From assembly GCA_934101345.1 (NCBI GenBank), contig CAKOQV010000001.1, positions 38,991 to 102,990 on the forward strand: a stretch of DNA of 64,000 bases. Reading direction: 5' to 3'. Origin of the DNA: an uncultured Bacilli bacterium (GTDB lineage Bacteria; Bacillota_I; Bacilli_A; RF39; UBA660). Shown here in pieces: positions 29,803 through 34,052 of the stretch; positions within the stretch are counted from its first letter, which is position 1; every line of letters begins with the position of its first letter. The notes below the pieces were generated by a model that saw only the letters and a list, made by a program, of their open reading frames with translations, did no database searches and was not told the DNA's origin. A program made the position numbers and the translations under genes.

Positions 29803-29850
29803 ATATAATACTCCCTTTCTAAAATAATATATGAAATTTATAAAAAAATG

Positions 29851-29879
29851 TTAAAAAATAGATTATTCTATGTTATAAT
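29851..29879 (+). promoter_or_regulatory. Extended -10 promoter candidate for the pilC-pilD operon
   Basis: TTAAAA, 17-nt spacer, TGtTATAAT. Confidence 0.4.
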
Positions 29880-29904
29880 TATTTATAGAATAGGTGATTA
29901 TATT

Positions 29905-31209
29905 ATGAATGGTAAAAATGTTAATAATACTAGTAATAATAATGCTGTTTTTTCTTCTAATCAAACTATTAGTGGTAATGCTGCTGCGAGTAGAGTTAAG
30001 ACAAGATATAAATATACCTGCTACGACAAAGAAGGTAAGACTGTTAAGGGCTATTTTGATGCTTTTAGAAGATTAGATGTAGAGTCTTTTTTAAATAGTC
30101 AAGGATATAAGATACTTGAAATTAAGGAAACTAAAATTAGTAAATTTGGTGATTTTTTAACATTAGAAAGACCTATGAAATATAAAGATTTAGTATTCTT
30201 TTTAACACAGTTATCTACCTATATTAAGAGTGGTATTCCACTTACTGATTCTATTGTTATGTTAGATGAGCAAACTAAGAATAAGAATAGAAAGAATTTA
30301 TATAAAAAAATATTATATGAGCTAAATACTGGTGCTCCTTTTAGTGAGGCACTTGCTAGACAGGGAAATATATTTCCTAAACTACTTATTAATATGCTTA
30401 AAACGTCGGAACTTACTGGTAATTTGACTGAGGCACTAGATGATATGGCAGCTTATTACAAGACTGCTGATACTAATAGAAAACAAATAATATCTGCACT
30501 TACTTATCCAAGTGTTGTTCTAGTTGTGGCTATTGCGGTATTAACATTCTTACTTATATTTATTATACCTAGATTTGAAGATATATTTAGTCAATTAGGA
30601 GCTAGTCTTCCTGGTATTACAGTATTCTTAATTAATGCAAGTAATTTTGTTAAAGATAATATTATTAAGATTCTTATTGCAATAGTAGGCGTTGTTATCA
30701 TACTTATTGCTATGTATAAAAATATTAGGAAGTTTAGGTATATAGTTCAATATATACTTATGCATATTCCAATAATTAAAAATGTAATAATTGATAATCA
30801 GATAGTTATGTTTACTAAGACTTTTTCTTCACTTATTAGACATGATGTATTTATTACTGATAGCATTGAAATGCTAGGTAAAGTTACTAATAATGAGATA
30901 TATAAAGATATAATAAAAGAAGCTGTTACTAATCTTAGTACTGGTGCTGGATTATCTAAGGCTTTCGAAAATAAATGGGCTTTTCCTAGAATTGCTTATG
31001 AAATGTTGGTTACTGGAGAGAAAACTGGTAGACTTGGGGTAATGATGGAAAATGTTGCTTCTTATTATGAAGAAGAACAAAAGGCTTTAATTCAAAGATT
31101 AAAAAGTTTAATAGAACCTGTTATGATAATATTACTTGCGGGAATAGTTGGTGTAGTATTGCTCGCTATATTTGTTCCAATGTTTAGTATGTATAATGAC
31201 ATTTTATAG
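29905..31209 (+). CDS. pilC: Type IV pilus/competence platform protein, GspF/PilC family
   Basis: Two T2SSF repeats (…LSTYIKSGIPLTDSIVML…; …FSSLIRHDVFITDSIEMLG…), three TM segments and the GspF-like cytoplasmic N-terminus KYTCYDKEGKTVKGYFDA. ATG at 29905 after GGTGA. Confidence 0.8.
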   Translation: MNGKNVNNTSNNNAVFSSNQTISGNAAASRVKTRYKYTCYDKEGKTVKGYFDAFRRLDVESFLNSQGYKILEIKETKISKFGDFLTLERPMKYKDLVFFLTQLSTYIKSGIPLTDSIVMLDEQTKNKNRKNLYKKILYELNTGAPFSEALARQGNIFPKLLINMLKTSELTGNLTEALDDMAAYYKTADTNRKQIISALTYPSVVLVVAIAVLTFLLIFIIPRFEDIFSQLGASLPGITVFLINASNFVKDNIIKILIAIVGVVIILIAMYKNIRKFRYIVQYILMHIPIIKNVIIDNQIVMFTKTFSSLIRHDVFITDSIEMLGKVTNNEIYKDIIKEAVTNLSTGAGLSKAFENKWAFPRIAYEMLVTGEKTGRLGVMMENVASYYEEEQKALIQRLKSLIEPVMIILLAGIVGVVLLAIFVPMFSMYNDIL

Positions 31210-31217
31210 GTGATTTT

Positions 31218-31982
31218 ATGGAAATATATATATATATAATAATATTTATTTTTGGAACAGTGATGGGAAGTTTTCTTAATAATTTAGCTGTGAGACTATC
31301 TAACAACGAATCTATATTATATCCTAGAAGTCATTGCCACTGTTGTCAACATAAACTTAGATGGTACGAATTAATACCAGTAGTATCTTATGTTATACAA
31401 GGTGGTAAAAGTAGATGTTGTCATAATAAAATACCAATAAGTTACTTATTAGTTGAAGTTATTACTGGAGTATTATTCTGTACTTCTTACCATTCATTTG
31501 GTTTTAGTTACAACTTTGTTATTAGTTTAATATTTATATCTAGTTTAGTTACTATTATTGTAAGTGATATTGAATATATGATTATATTAGATGAAGTTAT
31601 AGCGGTAACTGCAATTTTAATTATACTACTTGAACTTATCTTCTTTGGACTTGAATATACTGCTGATAAAATTATTGCAGGAATACTTGCTTTTATTACT
31701 ATGTATGTGATAAAATTAATAGGGGATAGGCTATTTAAGAGAGAATCTATGGGTGGAGGAGATATTAAATTAATGTTTCTATTTGGAATAGTAATTGGAT
31801 ATCCTCTATGTATATGTGATATATTTTTAGCTACTTTTATTGCTTTTCCAGTAGCAGTTTATATGTTGTTTAGTAGAAAAGATAATTTAATACCTTTTGG
31901 GCCATTTCTAGCAATGGCTGCAATACTAATACATATATCTAAAGTTGATGTAGTTAGTATATTAAATTTCTTTAGCAAATAA
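31218..31982 (+). CDS. pilD: Prepilin peptidase (A24 family, PilD/ComC-like)
   Basis: N-terminal Zn-binding CxxC…CxxC (CHCCQHKL…RCCHNKI), the GGGDIKL catalytic Asp motif and multiple TM helices. Confidence 0.85.
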   Translation: MEIYIYIIIFIFGTVMGSFLNNLAVRLSNNESILYPRSHCHCCQHKLRWYELIPVVSYVIQGGKSRCCHNKIPISYLLVEVITGVLFCTSYHSFGFSYNFVISLIFISSLVTIIVSDIEYMIILDEVIAVTAILIILLELIFFGLEYTADKIIAGILAFITMYVIKLIGDRLFKRESMGGGDIKLMFLFGIVIGYPLCICDIFLATFIAFPVAVYMLFSRKDNLIPFGPFLAMAAILIHISKVDVVSILNFFSK

Positions 31983-31997
31983 GGAGGAATGTATATT

Positions 31998-34052
31998 ATG
32001 GAAACTAAAATTTCAATGAAAACGATATATTTGATTTTAGTTATAACTATAGGTTTGATTGGTCTCGGCGTTGGTTCCACTTTTGCAGTTTTTACTGCAA
32101 GTGCAGAGATTAATAGTCCAATATATTTTTCTACTAGTTTAACTTATGATAGCGATATTTATGAATCTATAGATGTAGTTGTTGGTGCTAACTCTACTAG
32201 AGATATTAATTTTGCAATTTATAATGATGATAGTATTGCTAATGTTAATTACGCTGTATGGTATACATATAGTGGAAATAGTAATGATTTGACATTTGGT
32301 GTAAACTATTCCGAACAAAATTGTTCTACACCGAGTGGTGTTCTTGATTTGAATGGTTATAATGTATTAATTAGTGTTACTAATAATACTTCTAGTAACA
32401 TTACTTTTACTATTGGTGTTAGCACAAGTAAAGATGATATTGTTTTACCTAGTTATATGAAAATAGTTCCTAATAATATTATTTATTATGTTTTTTATAA
32501 TGCTAATAGTGGTGATAGCAGTACGTTGCCTTCAAGGCAAATTAAGCGTAAAGGTGTTTCGTTAACATTGAGTGATGTGGTTCCCAAAAGAGAAGGTTAT
32601 ACATTTGAAGGCTGGAATAATATTAACGCTGGTACTGGTACTACATATCAACCCGGAGCTACATATACTGTTGATGATGATGTTATATTGTTTGCACAAT
32701 GGAAAAAAGTTAATAAGTATACTGTAACATACAATGCTAATAATGGTAGTAATGCTCCTAGTAGTCAGATTAAAACAGAAGACGTTCCTTTGACATTGAC
32801 TACTGCTATTCCTACTAGAAGTGGTTTTGAATTTGTTGGATGGAATACTCAGGCCGATGGTAATGGTACACCTTATCAACCTGGAAGCACATATACTGTT
32901 AATGCCAATATAACTCTTTATGCTAAATGGGTGCAAATATTTACTATTTCATATAATGCTAATGGTGGTAGCAACGCTCCTAGTGCGCAAACAAAAAAAT
33001 ATGGAGAAACACTAACACTTAGTAGTCAGAAACCTAAAAGAACTGGTTATACTTTTAATGGTTGGTATCTTAATAGTGGGGGAACTGGTACTTCATATCA
33101 ACCTGGAAGTAAATATACTGCAAATGCAAATGCAACTTTATACGCTAAGTGGACTGCTAATAAAATTTATATTAACTATTATACTAATGGTGGTAGTTTA
33201 ACACAAGATAGTATTAATAGAGGATACTATGTTGATTCAAATGGTCTTATACATAAGAATGGTGTTAATTATATTACTACTTTAAATTATGGTGATTCTT
33301 TAACTTCAGATGGTCTTATTGATTATAATAGTAGTAATAATCTTGAAATTGTTAAATCGGGATATTCTGCACCTTCTGGTAAGGAATGGATAGATAAAAA
33401 TTCTGCTAAAACTTATAGCCAATCTTATGTTTATAGTTATTCTGATTTTTGCGATGCTAGTAATGGCAATTGTACTACAAGTTTAATTGTCAATTGGAGT
33501 GTTGGCTCTGATACTATTAATGATTATAGATGTATAAATAATAGTTTTTACTATATAACTAATTGTGTTGGTCAAACTTGTTATTATAATAATAAGTATT
33601 GTAGAGTTGAATCGGGTGTTGTAACTAGAAGTAGTCTTCAATATTGTAGTAATGAATCTATTGATGGTGATGCATGTACAAGAACTGGATATAAATATCA
33701 TCTTTCAACTTGTAAAGCAAATGTTTGTAACTATACACAATTAAATGGTTCTACTGCTACTGGTACTGTTAATAGATGTGATGTTATTAAAGTTTCTTGT
33801 GGCTCTCACACTAAATCTATGTATGTTACTTCAAGTAATGGATTAAATTGTCGTAAGAGTCCTAATACATCTTCAGATGTTGTTGTTTCAATACCTAAAT
33901 GTACTAAGTTAGAAGTTGGTCTTGATGAGGTTTCTAGTGGATGGTATTATATGCCTACTGTTACTTTATCAAATGGATATGGTGGATATAATACATATAA
34001 TTCATGCTATTTATCTGCAGATTCACTTAGTACTACTAGTAATTGTGGTTAA
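31998..34052 (+). CDS. Large secreted/surface protein: SipW-cognate-type signal, three Listeria-Bacteroides (Flg_new) repeats, Cys-rich region, C-terminal SH3b-like domain
   Basis: N-terminus …LIGLGVGSTFAVFTASAE (TasA-type motif). Three about 60-aa repeats (…EGYTFEGWN…GTTYQPGATYTV…ILFAQWKK; …SGFEFVGWN…; …TGYTFNGWY…) typical of the Listeria-Bacteroides repeat. Region 480-600 has many Cys. C-terminus SSNGLNCRKSPNTSSDVVVSIPKCTKLEV…SGWYYM is SH3_3-like. RBS AGGAGG 11 nt before the ATG at 31998; the track start at 31989 overlaps this RBS. Confidence 0.6.
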   Translation: METKISMKTIYLILVITIGLIGLGVGSTFAVFTASAEINSPIYFSTSLTYDSDIYESIDVVVGANSTRDINFAIYNDDSIANVNYAVWYTYSGNSNDLTFGVNYSEQNCSTPSGVLDLNGYNVLISVTNNTSSNITFTIGVSTSKDDIVLPSYMKIVPNNIIYYVFYNANSGDSSTLPSRQIKRKGVSLTLSDVVPKREGYTFEGWNNINAGTGTTYQPGATYTVDDDVILFAQWKKVNKYTVTYNANNGSNAPSSQIKTEDVPLTLTTAIPTRSGFEFVGWNTQADGNGTPYQPGSTYTVNANITLYAKWVQIFTISYNANGGSNAPSAQTKKYGETLTLSSQKPKRTGYTFNGWYLNSGGTGTSYQPGSKYTANANATLYAKWTANKIYINYYTNGGSLTQDSINRGYYVDSNGLIHKNGVNYITTLNYGDSLTSDGLIDYNSSNNLEIVKSGYSAPSGKEWIDKNSAKTYSQSYVYSYSDFCDASNGNCTTSLIVNWSVGSDTINDYRCINNSFYYITNCVGQTCYYNNKYCRVESGVVTRSSLQYCSNESIDGDACTRTGYKYHLSTCKANVCNYTQLNGSTATGTVNRCDVIKVSCGSHTKSMYVTSSNGLNCRKSPNTSSDVVVSIPKCTKLEVGLDEVSSGWYYMPTVTLSNGYGGYNTYNSCYLSADSLSTTSNCG

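Follow-up and report, generated by a model that had tools for sequence, protein, structure and literature searches.

The pilC-pilD-adhesin unit

The window analysed here, a stretch of 64,000 nucleotides (64 kb) from contig CAKOQV010000001.1 of an uncultured Bacilli bacterium, is AT-rich (~26% GC) and carries, at positions 29905-34052, two genes of the type IV filament machinery, pilC and pilD, together with the gene of a large surface protein, hereafter the adhesin. Gene order, gaps and ribosome-binding sites (RBSs) make the three genes a single compact unit: the stop codon of pilC is separated by 8 nt from the start of pilD, which has the RBS AGGTGA, and the stop codon of pilD by 15 nt from the start of the adhesin gene, which has the RBS AGGAGG. 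The locus is an unusual arrangement of known parts, in which a platform protein and a peptidase stand without a motor or a pilin and are joined to a modular adhesin with a SipW-type signal, and it is not a new system. All open reading frames (ORFs) of the window with at least 90 amino acids (aa) were annotated by profile search against Pfam and NCBIfam, and the unit and its borders comprise the following features:

29356-29802, minus strand: yqfQ-like gene encoding a Gly/Met/Pro-rich protein of 148 aa, divergent from pilC (PF14181 YqfQ, 35.9 bits against a cut-off of 27)
29851-29879, plus strand: promoter-like site TTAAAA-17-TGtTATAAT with a TG-extended -10 (10/12 match; a candidate only)
29905-31209, plus strand: pilC, GspF/PilC-type platform protein, 434 aa (two T2SSF domains, 176.6 bits)
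31218-31982, plus strand: pilD, A24 prepilin peptidase with an N-terminal Cys domain, 254 aa (A24_N_bact and Peptidase_A24)
31998-34052, plus strand: strain-variable surface adhesin (gene callers give 684 aa)
31998-32087, plus strand: SipW-dependent-type signal peptide of the adhesin, aa 1-30, predicted cleavage GSTFA|VF (TIGR04088; site by analogy with TasA, GGGTWA|AFND)
32088-32477, plus strand: conserved N-module of the adhesin, aa 31-160, a flexible strand and a 7-stranded beta-sandwich (AlphaFold2; conserved in 15 species)
32484-33158, plus strand: three Listeria-Bacteroides (Flg_new) repeats, aa 163-387 (PF09479, 153.4 bits in 3 stretches; TIGR02543, 67.4 bits)
33165-33500, plus strand: degenerate fourth repeat-like stretch, from reading the sequence only
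33450-34049, plus strand: Cys-rich C-terminal region with a sub-threshold SH3b-like segment (16 Cys in aa 485-683)
34064-34101, plus strand: AT-rich hairpin followed by a U-run, candidate terminator of the unit (-9.4 kcal/mol, z = -2.9 against shuffles)

PilC, already recognised as a GspF/PilC platform protein in a preliminary description of this DNA, matches PF00482 (T2SSF) in two stretches and conforms in length and polytopic layout to the platform family. It remains under all the NCBIfam equivalog cut-offs (GspF, 283 against 424 bits; PilC, 271 against 700 and 239 against 700; HofC, 248 against 401; ComGB, 152 against 240), and by these profile matches it is a member of the T2SSF family and the equivalog of no named subtype. 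We place its start at the ATG at 29905 (MNGKN..., RBS AGGTGA), because the TG-extended -10 falls inside the longest ORF; the resulting 434 aa are the length of most homologues. The extended -10 promoter of the preliminary description is thus present as a site, but it lies within that longest ORF and, since promoter-like matches in this AT-rich window are no commoner than in shuffled sequences (43 observed against 38.2 +/- 6.0, that is, not enriched), it is a plausible promoter and not a firm one. A promoter-like site of parC, found by motif scan, lies at 34135-34163, downstream of the hairpin. The transcription signals around the unit are plausible as a set, and their arrangement suggests that pilC, pilD and the adhesin gene would be co-transcribed.

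PilD matches PF06750 (A24_N_bact, 103.6 bits) and PF01478 (Peptidase_A24, 45.4 bits), and both of its catalytic Asp motifs (SDIEYMIILDE and GGGDIKLM) are invariant among relatives. The A24 assignment and the GGGD motif had been reported before and hold; the paired CxxC motifs reported with them do so for the first pair only. This first Cys pair is a CxxC conserved across relatives, and the second pair of the Zn site (residues ~39-68) is an adjacent CC (GKSRCCH) in the clade of 'Clostridium sp. CAG:302', an uncultured gut lineage to which the window belongs and which is introduced below, and a CxxC (GKCRSCK) in distant relatives. Despite this shift from CxxC to CC, four Cys are retained in the N-terminal domain.

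The third gene had been characterised as encoding a 685-aa protein that is not a pilin and that combines a SipW-type signal, three repeats and a Cys-rich region, all of which applies except the length, which is 684 aa. Its N-terminus opens with an n-region that contains Lys, continues with a hydrophobic segment of 18 residues and then reads GSTFA|VFTASAE; scanned alone, it reaches 19.1 bits on TIGR04088 ('SipW-dependent-type signal peptide') against a curated cut-off of 19, and paralogues from relatives reach 19.0-20.3. This is the layout of the TasA/CalY type, cut after the hydrophobic segment, whereas prepilins are cut before it. Because the mature end in the TasA fibre structure begins directly after GGGTWA (the TasA sequence used as query matched the structure exactly), cleavage of the adhesin is predicted directly after GSTFA. 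The adhesin has no class III signal, with neither a Gly before the hydrophobic segment nor a Glu at +5, and we saw no LPXTG or GW anchor in it. An AlphaFold2 model of the N-module, built from a 16-sequence alignment (mean predicted local distance difference test (pLDDT) score 76, core 80-90), comprises a membrane helix, an extended stretch of low confidence and a seven-stranded beta-sandwich. The module has no match in Pfam or in a profile search of the PDB, and Foldseek returned weak, generic beta-sandwich matches only (PliG, GOLD, Ena subunits). Because G(-1) and E(+5) are lacking, TIGR04088 is matched and a beta-sandwich is modelled instead of a pilin fold, the adhesin is, on signal and predicted structure, not a pilin. 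Towards the other end, 16 of its 17 Cys fall within residues 485-683, and the SH3b-like C-terminus proposed earlier corresponds to an SH3_3 match of 21 bits (E = 3.7e-4) that is under the Pfam threshold of 27, being SH3b-like at best.

Conservation of pilCD and variability of the slot behind it

Using PilC we scanned one genome per species and obtained 32 loci with PilC identities of 52-97%, in which ORFs were labelled with the window proteins. These loci are led by 'Clostridium sp. CAG:302' and by metagenome-assembled genomes (MAGs) labelled uncultured Bacilli or Tenericutes, and one relative has a closed chromosome of 1.46 Mb. The core of yqfQ, pilC and pilD is present in 32/32 species, and yqfQ, the Gly/Met/Pro-rich divergent gene of the preliminary description, is always divergent from pilC. 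The pilCD ORFs are intact in 31/32 species, and the broken copy lies in an assembly with equally fragmented mreC, mreD and radC: in this closed 1.46-Mb MAG (L022, CP091726.1), pilC, pilD, mreC, mreD and radC are all split into fragments, most likely through frameshift errors of a long-read assembly and not because they are pseudogenes. Compared with five to seven species, the ratio of nonsynonymous to synonymous substitution rates (dN/dS) is 0.08-0.18 for pilC and 0.10-0.24 for pilD, on par with mreC, parC and radC. These low ratios, the invariant catalytic motifs and the conservation across species argue that pilC and pilD are working genes and not relics. An identical PilC protein is present on many gut-metagenome contigs; a metagenome scan with the PilC alignment returned close relatives only, at 73-100% identity, and hence informs on strain variation with no deeper phylogenetic reach.

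The earlier statement that neither a pilin nor an assembly ATPase lies nearby was borne out by scans of the window, and it extends to the relatives: there is no T2SSE ATPase within +/-10 kb of pilCD in the 32 species, and no TadA match in the 32 loci, the one exception being a locus with partial Tad loci at its edge. Two candidates were rejected on the way. The sizes of the ORFs after pilD in L019 and L023 had suggested a PilM/N/O-pilin-PilB cluster, and these genes really encode a CCA-adding enzyme, a DnaD-like protein, Nth, AsnB, a MiaB-like protein and an ABC transporter; an ORF of ~570 aa upstream in distant relatives, considered as a PilB-type ATPase, is unlike one in sequence and has no TadA match. 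Nothing on a pilC-pilD-adhesin locus turned up in the literature on RF39 and on further gut lineages with reduced genomes.

The slot behind pilD behaves very differently. In 15 species the gene after pilD opens with the same signal and N-module, with total lengths of 205-876 aa, and in 80 metagenome contigs the post-pilD gene encodes 153-887 aa, even among contigs that share a PilC identity of ~97% or ~74%. The N-module itself is fast-evolving (dN/dS 0.30-0.89). The adhesin gene is missing in at least 6 metagenome contigs, in which pilD abuts parC or the gene of the CCA enzyme, and in the species loci L017, L019, L023 and L024, all of which keep pilCD; in L024 the two genes are flanked by dnaG-sigA-trmK-yqfQ and by rluB and ribosomal genes, with no SipW-type-signal neighbour. 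The adhesin gene is a dispensable and hypervariable companion of pilCD. Of the non-canonical operon first described, the compact pilC-pilD-adhesin unit therefore stands, whereas the role given to the third gene, dispensable, hypervariable and absent in some species and strains, had been overstated.

Distant relatives, with PilC identities of 52-57%, carry in the post-pilD slot a free-standing gene of 158 aa whose product is homologous to the N-module (hhalign 95.4%, E = 1.7e-8, 123 columns). Because these relatives hold such a homologue in the same slot, the N-module is old in its post-pilD position, with the adhesive cargo added later and swappable. One N-module gene was found in a cluster of similar genes with no pilD in the available 3 kb upstream. 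After pilD in L130 (2690-5970), and also in L129, there follow a 505-aa N-module protein, a truncated N-module duplicate of 131 aa and a signal-less ORF of 403 aa, an arrangement that suggests duplication or recombination among adhesin cassettes sharing a conserved 5' module. The clade also has a second strain-variable slot: five loci with identical PilC (L001-L005) have an extra gene with Flg_new repeats, of 460-464 aa and at about 5690-7120, between the gene of an SDF transporter and radC. This gene is absent from the corresponding place here (window 26892-27252), and in L008 the same pre-radC place holds a 713-aa gene with a SipW-type signal.

The Tad locus, its SipW-type-signal neighbours and the rest of the window

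The sole other type IV filament genes of the window form a Tad locus (9939-14483), ~18 kb upstream of pilCD, which is followed, after yebC, by two small genes that we call S197 and S185:

9939-10653, plus strand: two TadE-like pseudopilin genes (PF07811 TadE; signals MNRKG|QALVEF and ...NNKG|QSLVLF)
10658-14483, plus strand: Tad machinery, namely a tadZ-like ATPase (AAA_31/ParA), tadA (T2SSE, 216.6 bits), tadB and tadC (T2SSF twice)
15568-16715, plus strand: S197 and S185, paralogous small proteins with the same signal type as the adhesin, directly after tad-yebC (N-termini; hhalign 98.9%)

TadZ, TadA, TadB, TadC and TadE/F-like genes identify the Tad locus as such, and their order is kept in L039 and L040. 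The signals of the TadE-like proteins are conserved in L040; in six-frame scans of the 64 kb, TadE1 has the only strict class III signal, that of TadE2 being without Glu. The preliminary description had reported a Tad locus with TadE-like genes and with neither flp nor TadV, and ORF annotation, signal scans and small-ORF scans of the window agree with it. No flp-like small ORF is present in the window, where a search for short Flp pilins had been proposed, nor in L040; the Tad locus holds no TadV, and profile search of the ORFs of at least 90 aa gave no second A24 peptidase in the window, which leaves PilD as its only one. Likewise, the 64 kb contain no T2SSE ATPase besides tadA, no PilM/N/O and no G|xxxxE pilin. 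The other candidates of the small-ORF scans for Flp- and Com-type pilins, strict and relaxed, were obvious false positives inside larger genes. A six-frame motif scan for the GSMxP-type catalytic box of signal peptidase I (SPase I) or SipW found none in the window and the first 38 loci, about 0.8 Mb together.

In the clade, Tad and pilCD are 8-18 kb apart. Loci selected with S185 have the order rpsD (reversed), a cadherin-like gene, tadE, tadE, tadZ, tadA, tadB, tadC, yebC, S197, S185, housekeeping genes, radC, mreC, mreD, yqfQ (reversed), pilC and pilD, and in one species the stretch from tadA through pilD fits in 15.5 kb. The cadherin-like gene of the window (7646-9859), directly upstream of tadE, encodes 737 aa that comprise a signal peptide, cadherin-like domains and, at the C-terminus, a membrane anchor; it is also found before tadE in L040 (826-828 aa), and by its position and domains the protein may be a Tad-associated adhesin.

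S197 (15568-16161, GSSYAYY) and S185 (16167-16715, GCTYAFF) are homologous to each other by profile comparison, and both are below the TIGR04088 cut-off. Together with the adhesin gene they make exactly three SipW-type-signal genes in 64 kb, each adjoining type IV filament genes, either after pilD or after tad-yebC. Neither these two genes nor the conserved N-module after pilD had been mentioned in the preliminary description, which is to that extent incomplete. In one clade the S197-S185 pair is a neighbour of Tad and in another of pilCD: in this distant clade, homologues of S197 and S185 and two further paralogues lie on both sides of yqfQ-pilC-pilD, and distant relatives have four or five SipW-type-signal genes around pilCD.

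The AlphaFold2 model of S185 is a nine-stranded beta-jellyroll (pLDDT 84) with weak fold matches to carbohydrate-binding modules, BcsB and, as a marginal case, AbpA, the subunit of archaeal bundling pili (E = 5.7e-3, template modelling (TM) score 0.31). Its likeness to TasA is confined to the first ~50 residues, which include the SG-x-LD strand motif, and membership in the TasA/camelysin family (Peptidase_M73) found no support in Pfam, in the PDB profile search, in hhalign or in Foldseek. That S197, S185 and the N-module are non-canonical pilins is ruled out by their signal layout, by the beta-sandwich and jellyroll models and by the lack of pilin matches.

The S185 family (here 15568-16715; in L031, 8138-9355 and 13639-14793) is large, with 1,211 cluster representatives at E <= 1e-3 in an exhaustive profile search and 243 at E <= 1e-10. 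Many members are 360-883 aa long and begin with the module, behind which adhesin-type cargo follows. No Pfam match falls inside the S185-type module in 40 sampled members (0/40), and the cargo of the sampled members comprises Flg_new, Laminin_G_3, Big_13, PKD-like and DUF6273 domains. The N-module and the S185-type module are two N-terminal module families without annotation so far. Two remote contexts of the S185 family speak against a strict linkage: in L125/L126 the gene lies between dnaJ and nrdD (dnaK-dnaJ/nrdD) with no gene of the type IV pilus (T4P) superfamily within +/-10 kb, and in L127 it lies amid lipid and sigma-factor genes on an 8-kb contig with no T4P-superfamily gene. Both come from genomes of ~27% GC and have the same signal type; the contigs of several other remote family members were too short to use. 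The association between SipW-type-signal genes and pilCD is frequent and old in the lineage, and not obligatory.

After S185, in every CAG:302-clade locus that covers this place, lies the gene of a 347-aa cytoplasmic protein with no Pfam or NCBIfam match (window 16790-17833), in which a Cys-containing stretch, GKTTSTCISKLLMYLCSRVGIKSE, is by eye reminiscent of transglutaminase-like cores. Farther from the filament genes, the region 1699-6302 is probably a mobile-element remnant, judging from a Mob_Pre relaxase (1699-2757), a BRO-N protein encoded on the minus strand (5916-6302) and, besides these, several ORFs that match no family. At 53058-63780 lies a cell-wall glycopolymer cluster (LytR-CpsA-Psr, GT4, Stealth, a PIG-L deacetylase, an 817-aa Wzy_C/ATP-grasp fusion, WecG/TagA and GT2), and upstream of it a 1256-aa protein (49171-52941) has a weak metallophosphoesterase match only. 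The relatives have, by eye, SpoIIGA-like and SigE-like proteins (L031, 3184-4641), and the window a weak match to a GerS-like lipoprotein (42135-43247, 44.6 bits against a cut-off of 175), which are hints that the small-genome gut Bacilli of this lineage may form spores.

Possible roles of the locus and comparison with known systems

The reading that we favour, and which we believe has about an even chance of being right, is that pilCD provide free-standing core parts. PilC and PilD would be functional core parts of a type IV filament machinery, encoded by a two-gene housekeeping unit beside yqfQ, and PilD would be the prepilin peptidase of the cell, working in trans. Its visible substrates would be the pair of TadE-like pseudopilins from the Tad locus, which has neither flp nor TadV, and any unlinked pilins would be substrates as well; since no class III signals were found outside the TadE-like proteins, whose signals relatives conserve, action of PilD on them in trans is plausible. 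As for the ATPase that serves PilC, we infer that it is encoded elsewhere, as an unlinked motor of the PilB/ComGA type or, less conventionally, as TadA. The third gene would stand outside the filament, its product being a Sec-exported surface adhesin in which a SipW-type signal and a beta-sandwich N-module precede swappable adhesive cargo; riding on the pilCD transcript, it would be expressed together with the pili.

Several observations weigh against this reading: (i) it is unusual for a platform of the PilC type to have no cognate ATPase within 10 kb in any of 32 species. (ii) The Tad locus already has platform proteins of its own, TadB and TadC. (iii) The N-module is kept in the post-pilD slot from the CAG:302 clade to the relatives at 52-57% PilC identity. 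(iv) Several more SipW-type-signal genes flank pilCD or Tad. Because of the last two points, the linkage exceeds what would be expected of a pure passenger.

The same points lend themselves to a different account, which we consider fairly unlikely, in which the surface proteins are clients of the machinery. PilC and PilD, with the Tad ATPase and the TadE-like pseudopilins or with an unlinked motor, would form a Gram-positive route, similar to a type II secretion system (T2SS) or dependent on T4P, for folded beta-sandwich proteins with SipW-type signals (the adhesin, S197 and S185); it would help them to cross the cell wall or to anchor in it, and the N-module would be the recognition or anchoring element. 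This account draws on the finding that Clostridium perfringens needs PilA3, PilB2, PilC1, PilD and PilMNO for efficient secretion of BsaC (PMC11580942). It is also consistent with the position of 3/3 SipW-type-signal genes of the 64 kb directly after pilD or tad-yebC, with the four or five such genes around pilCD in distant relatives, with the hold of the N-module on its slot across deep divergence, with the S197-S185 pair being found beside Tad in one clade and beside pilCD in another, and with the lack of an SPase I/SipW catalytic box in the window and the first 38 loci, although that search was a motif scan only, of about 0.8 Mb. However, remote members of the S185 family occur in housekeeping contexts away from T4P-superfamily genes (L125/L126 and L127), pilD is lacking from the 3 kb upstream of one N-module gene, pilCD are kept where the adhesin is absent, and no ATPase is linked. 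In its fullest form, which we regard as unlikely, the locus would belong to a Gram-positive counterpart of the T2SS, made of PilC/PilD, the Tad ATPase or an unlinked motor, and TadE-like pseudopilins, with SipW-type beta-sandwich proteins as its clients, and the post-pilD N-module would dock cargo adhesins to the machine or anchor them at the surface.

A plainer alternative, in our judgement just as doubtful as this last proposal, is an ordinary split system: a full Pil or Com cluster (pilB/comGA and pilins) without pilCD would lie elsewhere in the genome, PilD would not be specific to Tad, and the adhesin gene would be unrelated, its slot being one that is prone to recombination. In Bacilli the genes of prepilin peptidases are often unlinked, the post-pilD slot is hypervariable, with polymorphism in presence, absence and duplication, and the window is a 64-kb read of a genome of ~1.5 Mb, as estimated from the closed relative. 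Against this, PilC is under the equivalog cut-offs of both ComGB and PilC, a pilB/pilin operon without a platform gene is not the usual kind of split, none of the 32 species has such a cluster within 10 kb, and the Tad locus without a peptidase is left unexplained. If a pilB/pilin cluster does lie elsewhere in the genome, our finding shrinks to such a split system beside a variable adhesin gene.

Very improbable, in our view, is that PilD, or PilC and PilD jointly, stands in for an absent SipW in maturing the SipW-type signals. Here pilCD sit among SipW-type-signal genes, where sipW sits in the tapA-sipW-tasA operon. The sipW-bsa operon has sipW in the same kind of position (PMC11580942), and the motif scan found no SPase I box in the window or the first 38 loci. 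However, cleavage by A24 peptidases takes place on the cytoplasmic face, behind a Gly that stands before the hydrophobic segment, and SipW-type proteins lack a conserved Gly at that place. The motif that they do conserve, G-x-T-[FY]-A, marks the outer end of this segment, which is the cleavage position of type I signal peptidases; the simple alternative is a housekeeping SPase I encoded elsewhere in the genome. Finally, the idea that the genome was reduced and a pilus system lost from it, with pilC and pilD left behind to decay, is one that the small genome (1.46 Mb in the closed relative) and the missing motor and pilin genes nearby might suggest; it is scarcely credible given ORFs that are intact in 31/32 species, with a lone broken copy in a fragmented assembly, dN/dS values of 0.08-0.24 like those of essential neighbours and invariant catalytic residues.

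Returning to the free-standing pilCD core that we favour, with PilD working in trans, a close parallel to it is the competence system of Bacillus subtilis, in which ComC serves a separate comG operon and comC lies near the maf-radC-mre region. Its position there is between folC and maf (PMC7232415). Like ComC, PilD is an A24 peptidase with an N-terminal Cys domain that is proposed here to act in trans on pilins encoded elsewhere. In contrast, ComGB is encoded inside the comG operon with the ATPase and the pilins, not beside ComC, whereas here the platform gene lies beside that of the peptidase, and the platform protein, which reaches 152 bits where ComGB has a cut-off of 240, is closer to GspF/PilC. 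The synteny of comC with mre that might be invoked is a weak argument, comC being elsewhere in B. anthracis.

As regards the Tad locus, Gram-positive tad operons without flp and with TadE only have already been described, and TadE-like proteins have been proposed as structural subunits (Imam et al. 2011, PMC3244431). The locus resembles these operons in having tadZ-tadA-tadB-tadC and TadE-like genes without flp. Most tad loci have tadV (PMC3244431), unlike this one, for which the only A24 peptidase seen is of the full-length PilD type, 18 kb away and paired with PilC.

The surface proteins share with TasA/TapA/SipW, the CalY fibres and AbpA the G-x-T-[WYF]-A-x-F signal, an N-terminal strand that is flexible and has an SG-x-LD-like motif, a body of the beta-sandwich or jellyroll kind and, sometimes, extra domains. 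They differ in showing no detectable sequence homology past about 50 N-terminal residues (hhalign 8% and 0.5%), no Peptidase_M73 match and no sipW nearby. With the proteins of the Listeria-Bacteroides repeat (InlB B-repeat, Flg_new) the 684-aa adhesin has in common three clear Flg_new repeats, which form its adhesive middle; it differs from internalin-type proteins in its N-terminal module, its signal type and its Cys-rich, SH3b-like tail. The two module families with swappable adhesin cargo, one of which has ~1,200 cluster representatives, are probably relevant to host colonisation and to strain individuality in uncultured gut Bacilli.

A close parallel to the association as a whole is found in C. 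perfringens, where BsaC is encoded in a TasA-like operon, sipW-bsaA-bsaB-bsaC, and the secretion of BsaC/BsaA is associated with T4P (Kivimaki et al., bioRxiv 2024, PMC11580942). There the link is functional, established with mutants, the loci are chromosomally unlinked and a full T4P set (pilin, PilB, PilMNO) is present along with sipW; here, in contrast, the link is genomic and physical only, and no PilB, PilMNO or sipW was seen in the sequence read. What both have in common is that, in a Gram-positive bacterium, T4P parts including PilC and PilD are tied to TasA-like beta-sandwich proteins of the surface or matrix that have SipW-type signals. Monoderms may use the T4P machinery to secrete proteins across their thick wall, a possibility for which the evidence has so far come mainly from one C. 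perfringens study, and the pilCD locus adds independent genomic support from a widespread human-gut lineage, in which the genes of a platform protein and a peptidase occur with, and are flanked by, genes of surface proteins with SipW-type signals.

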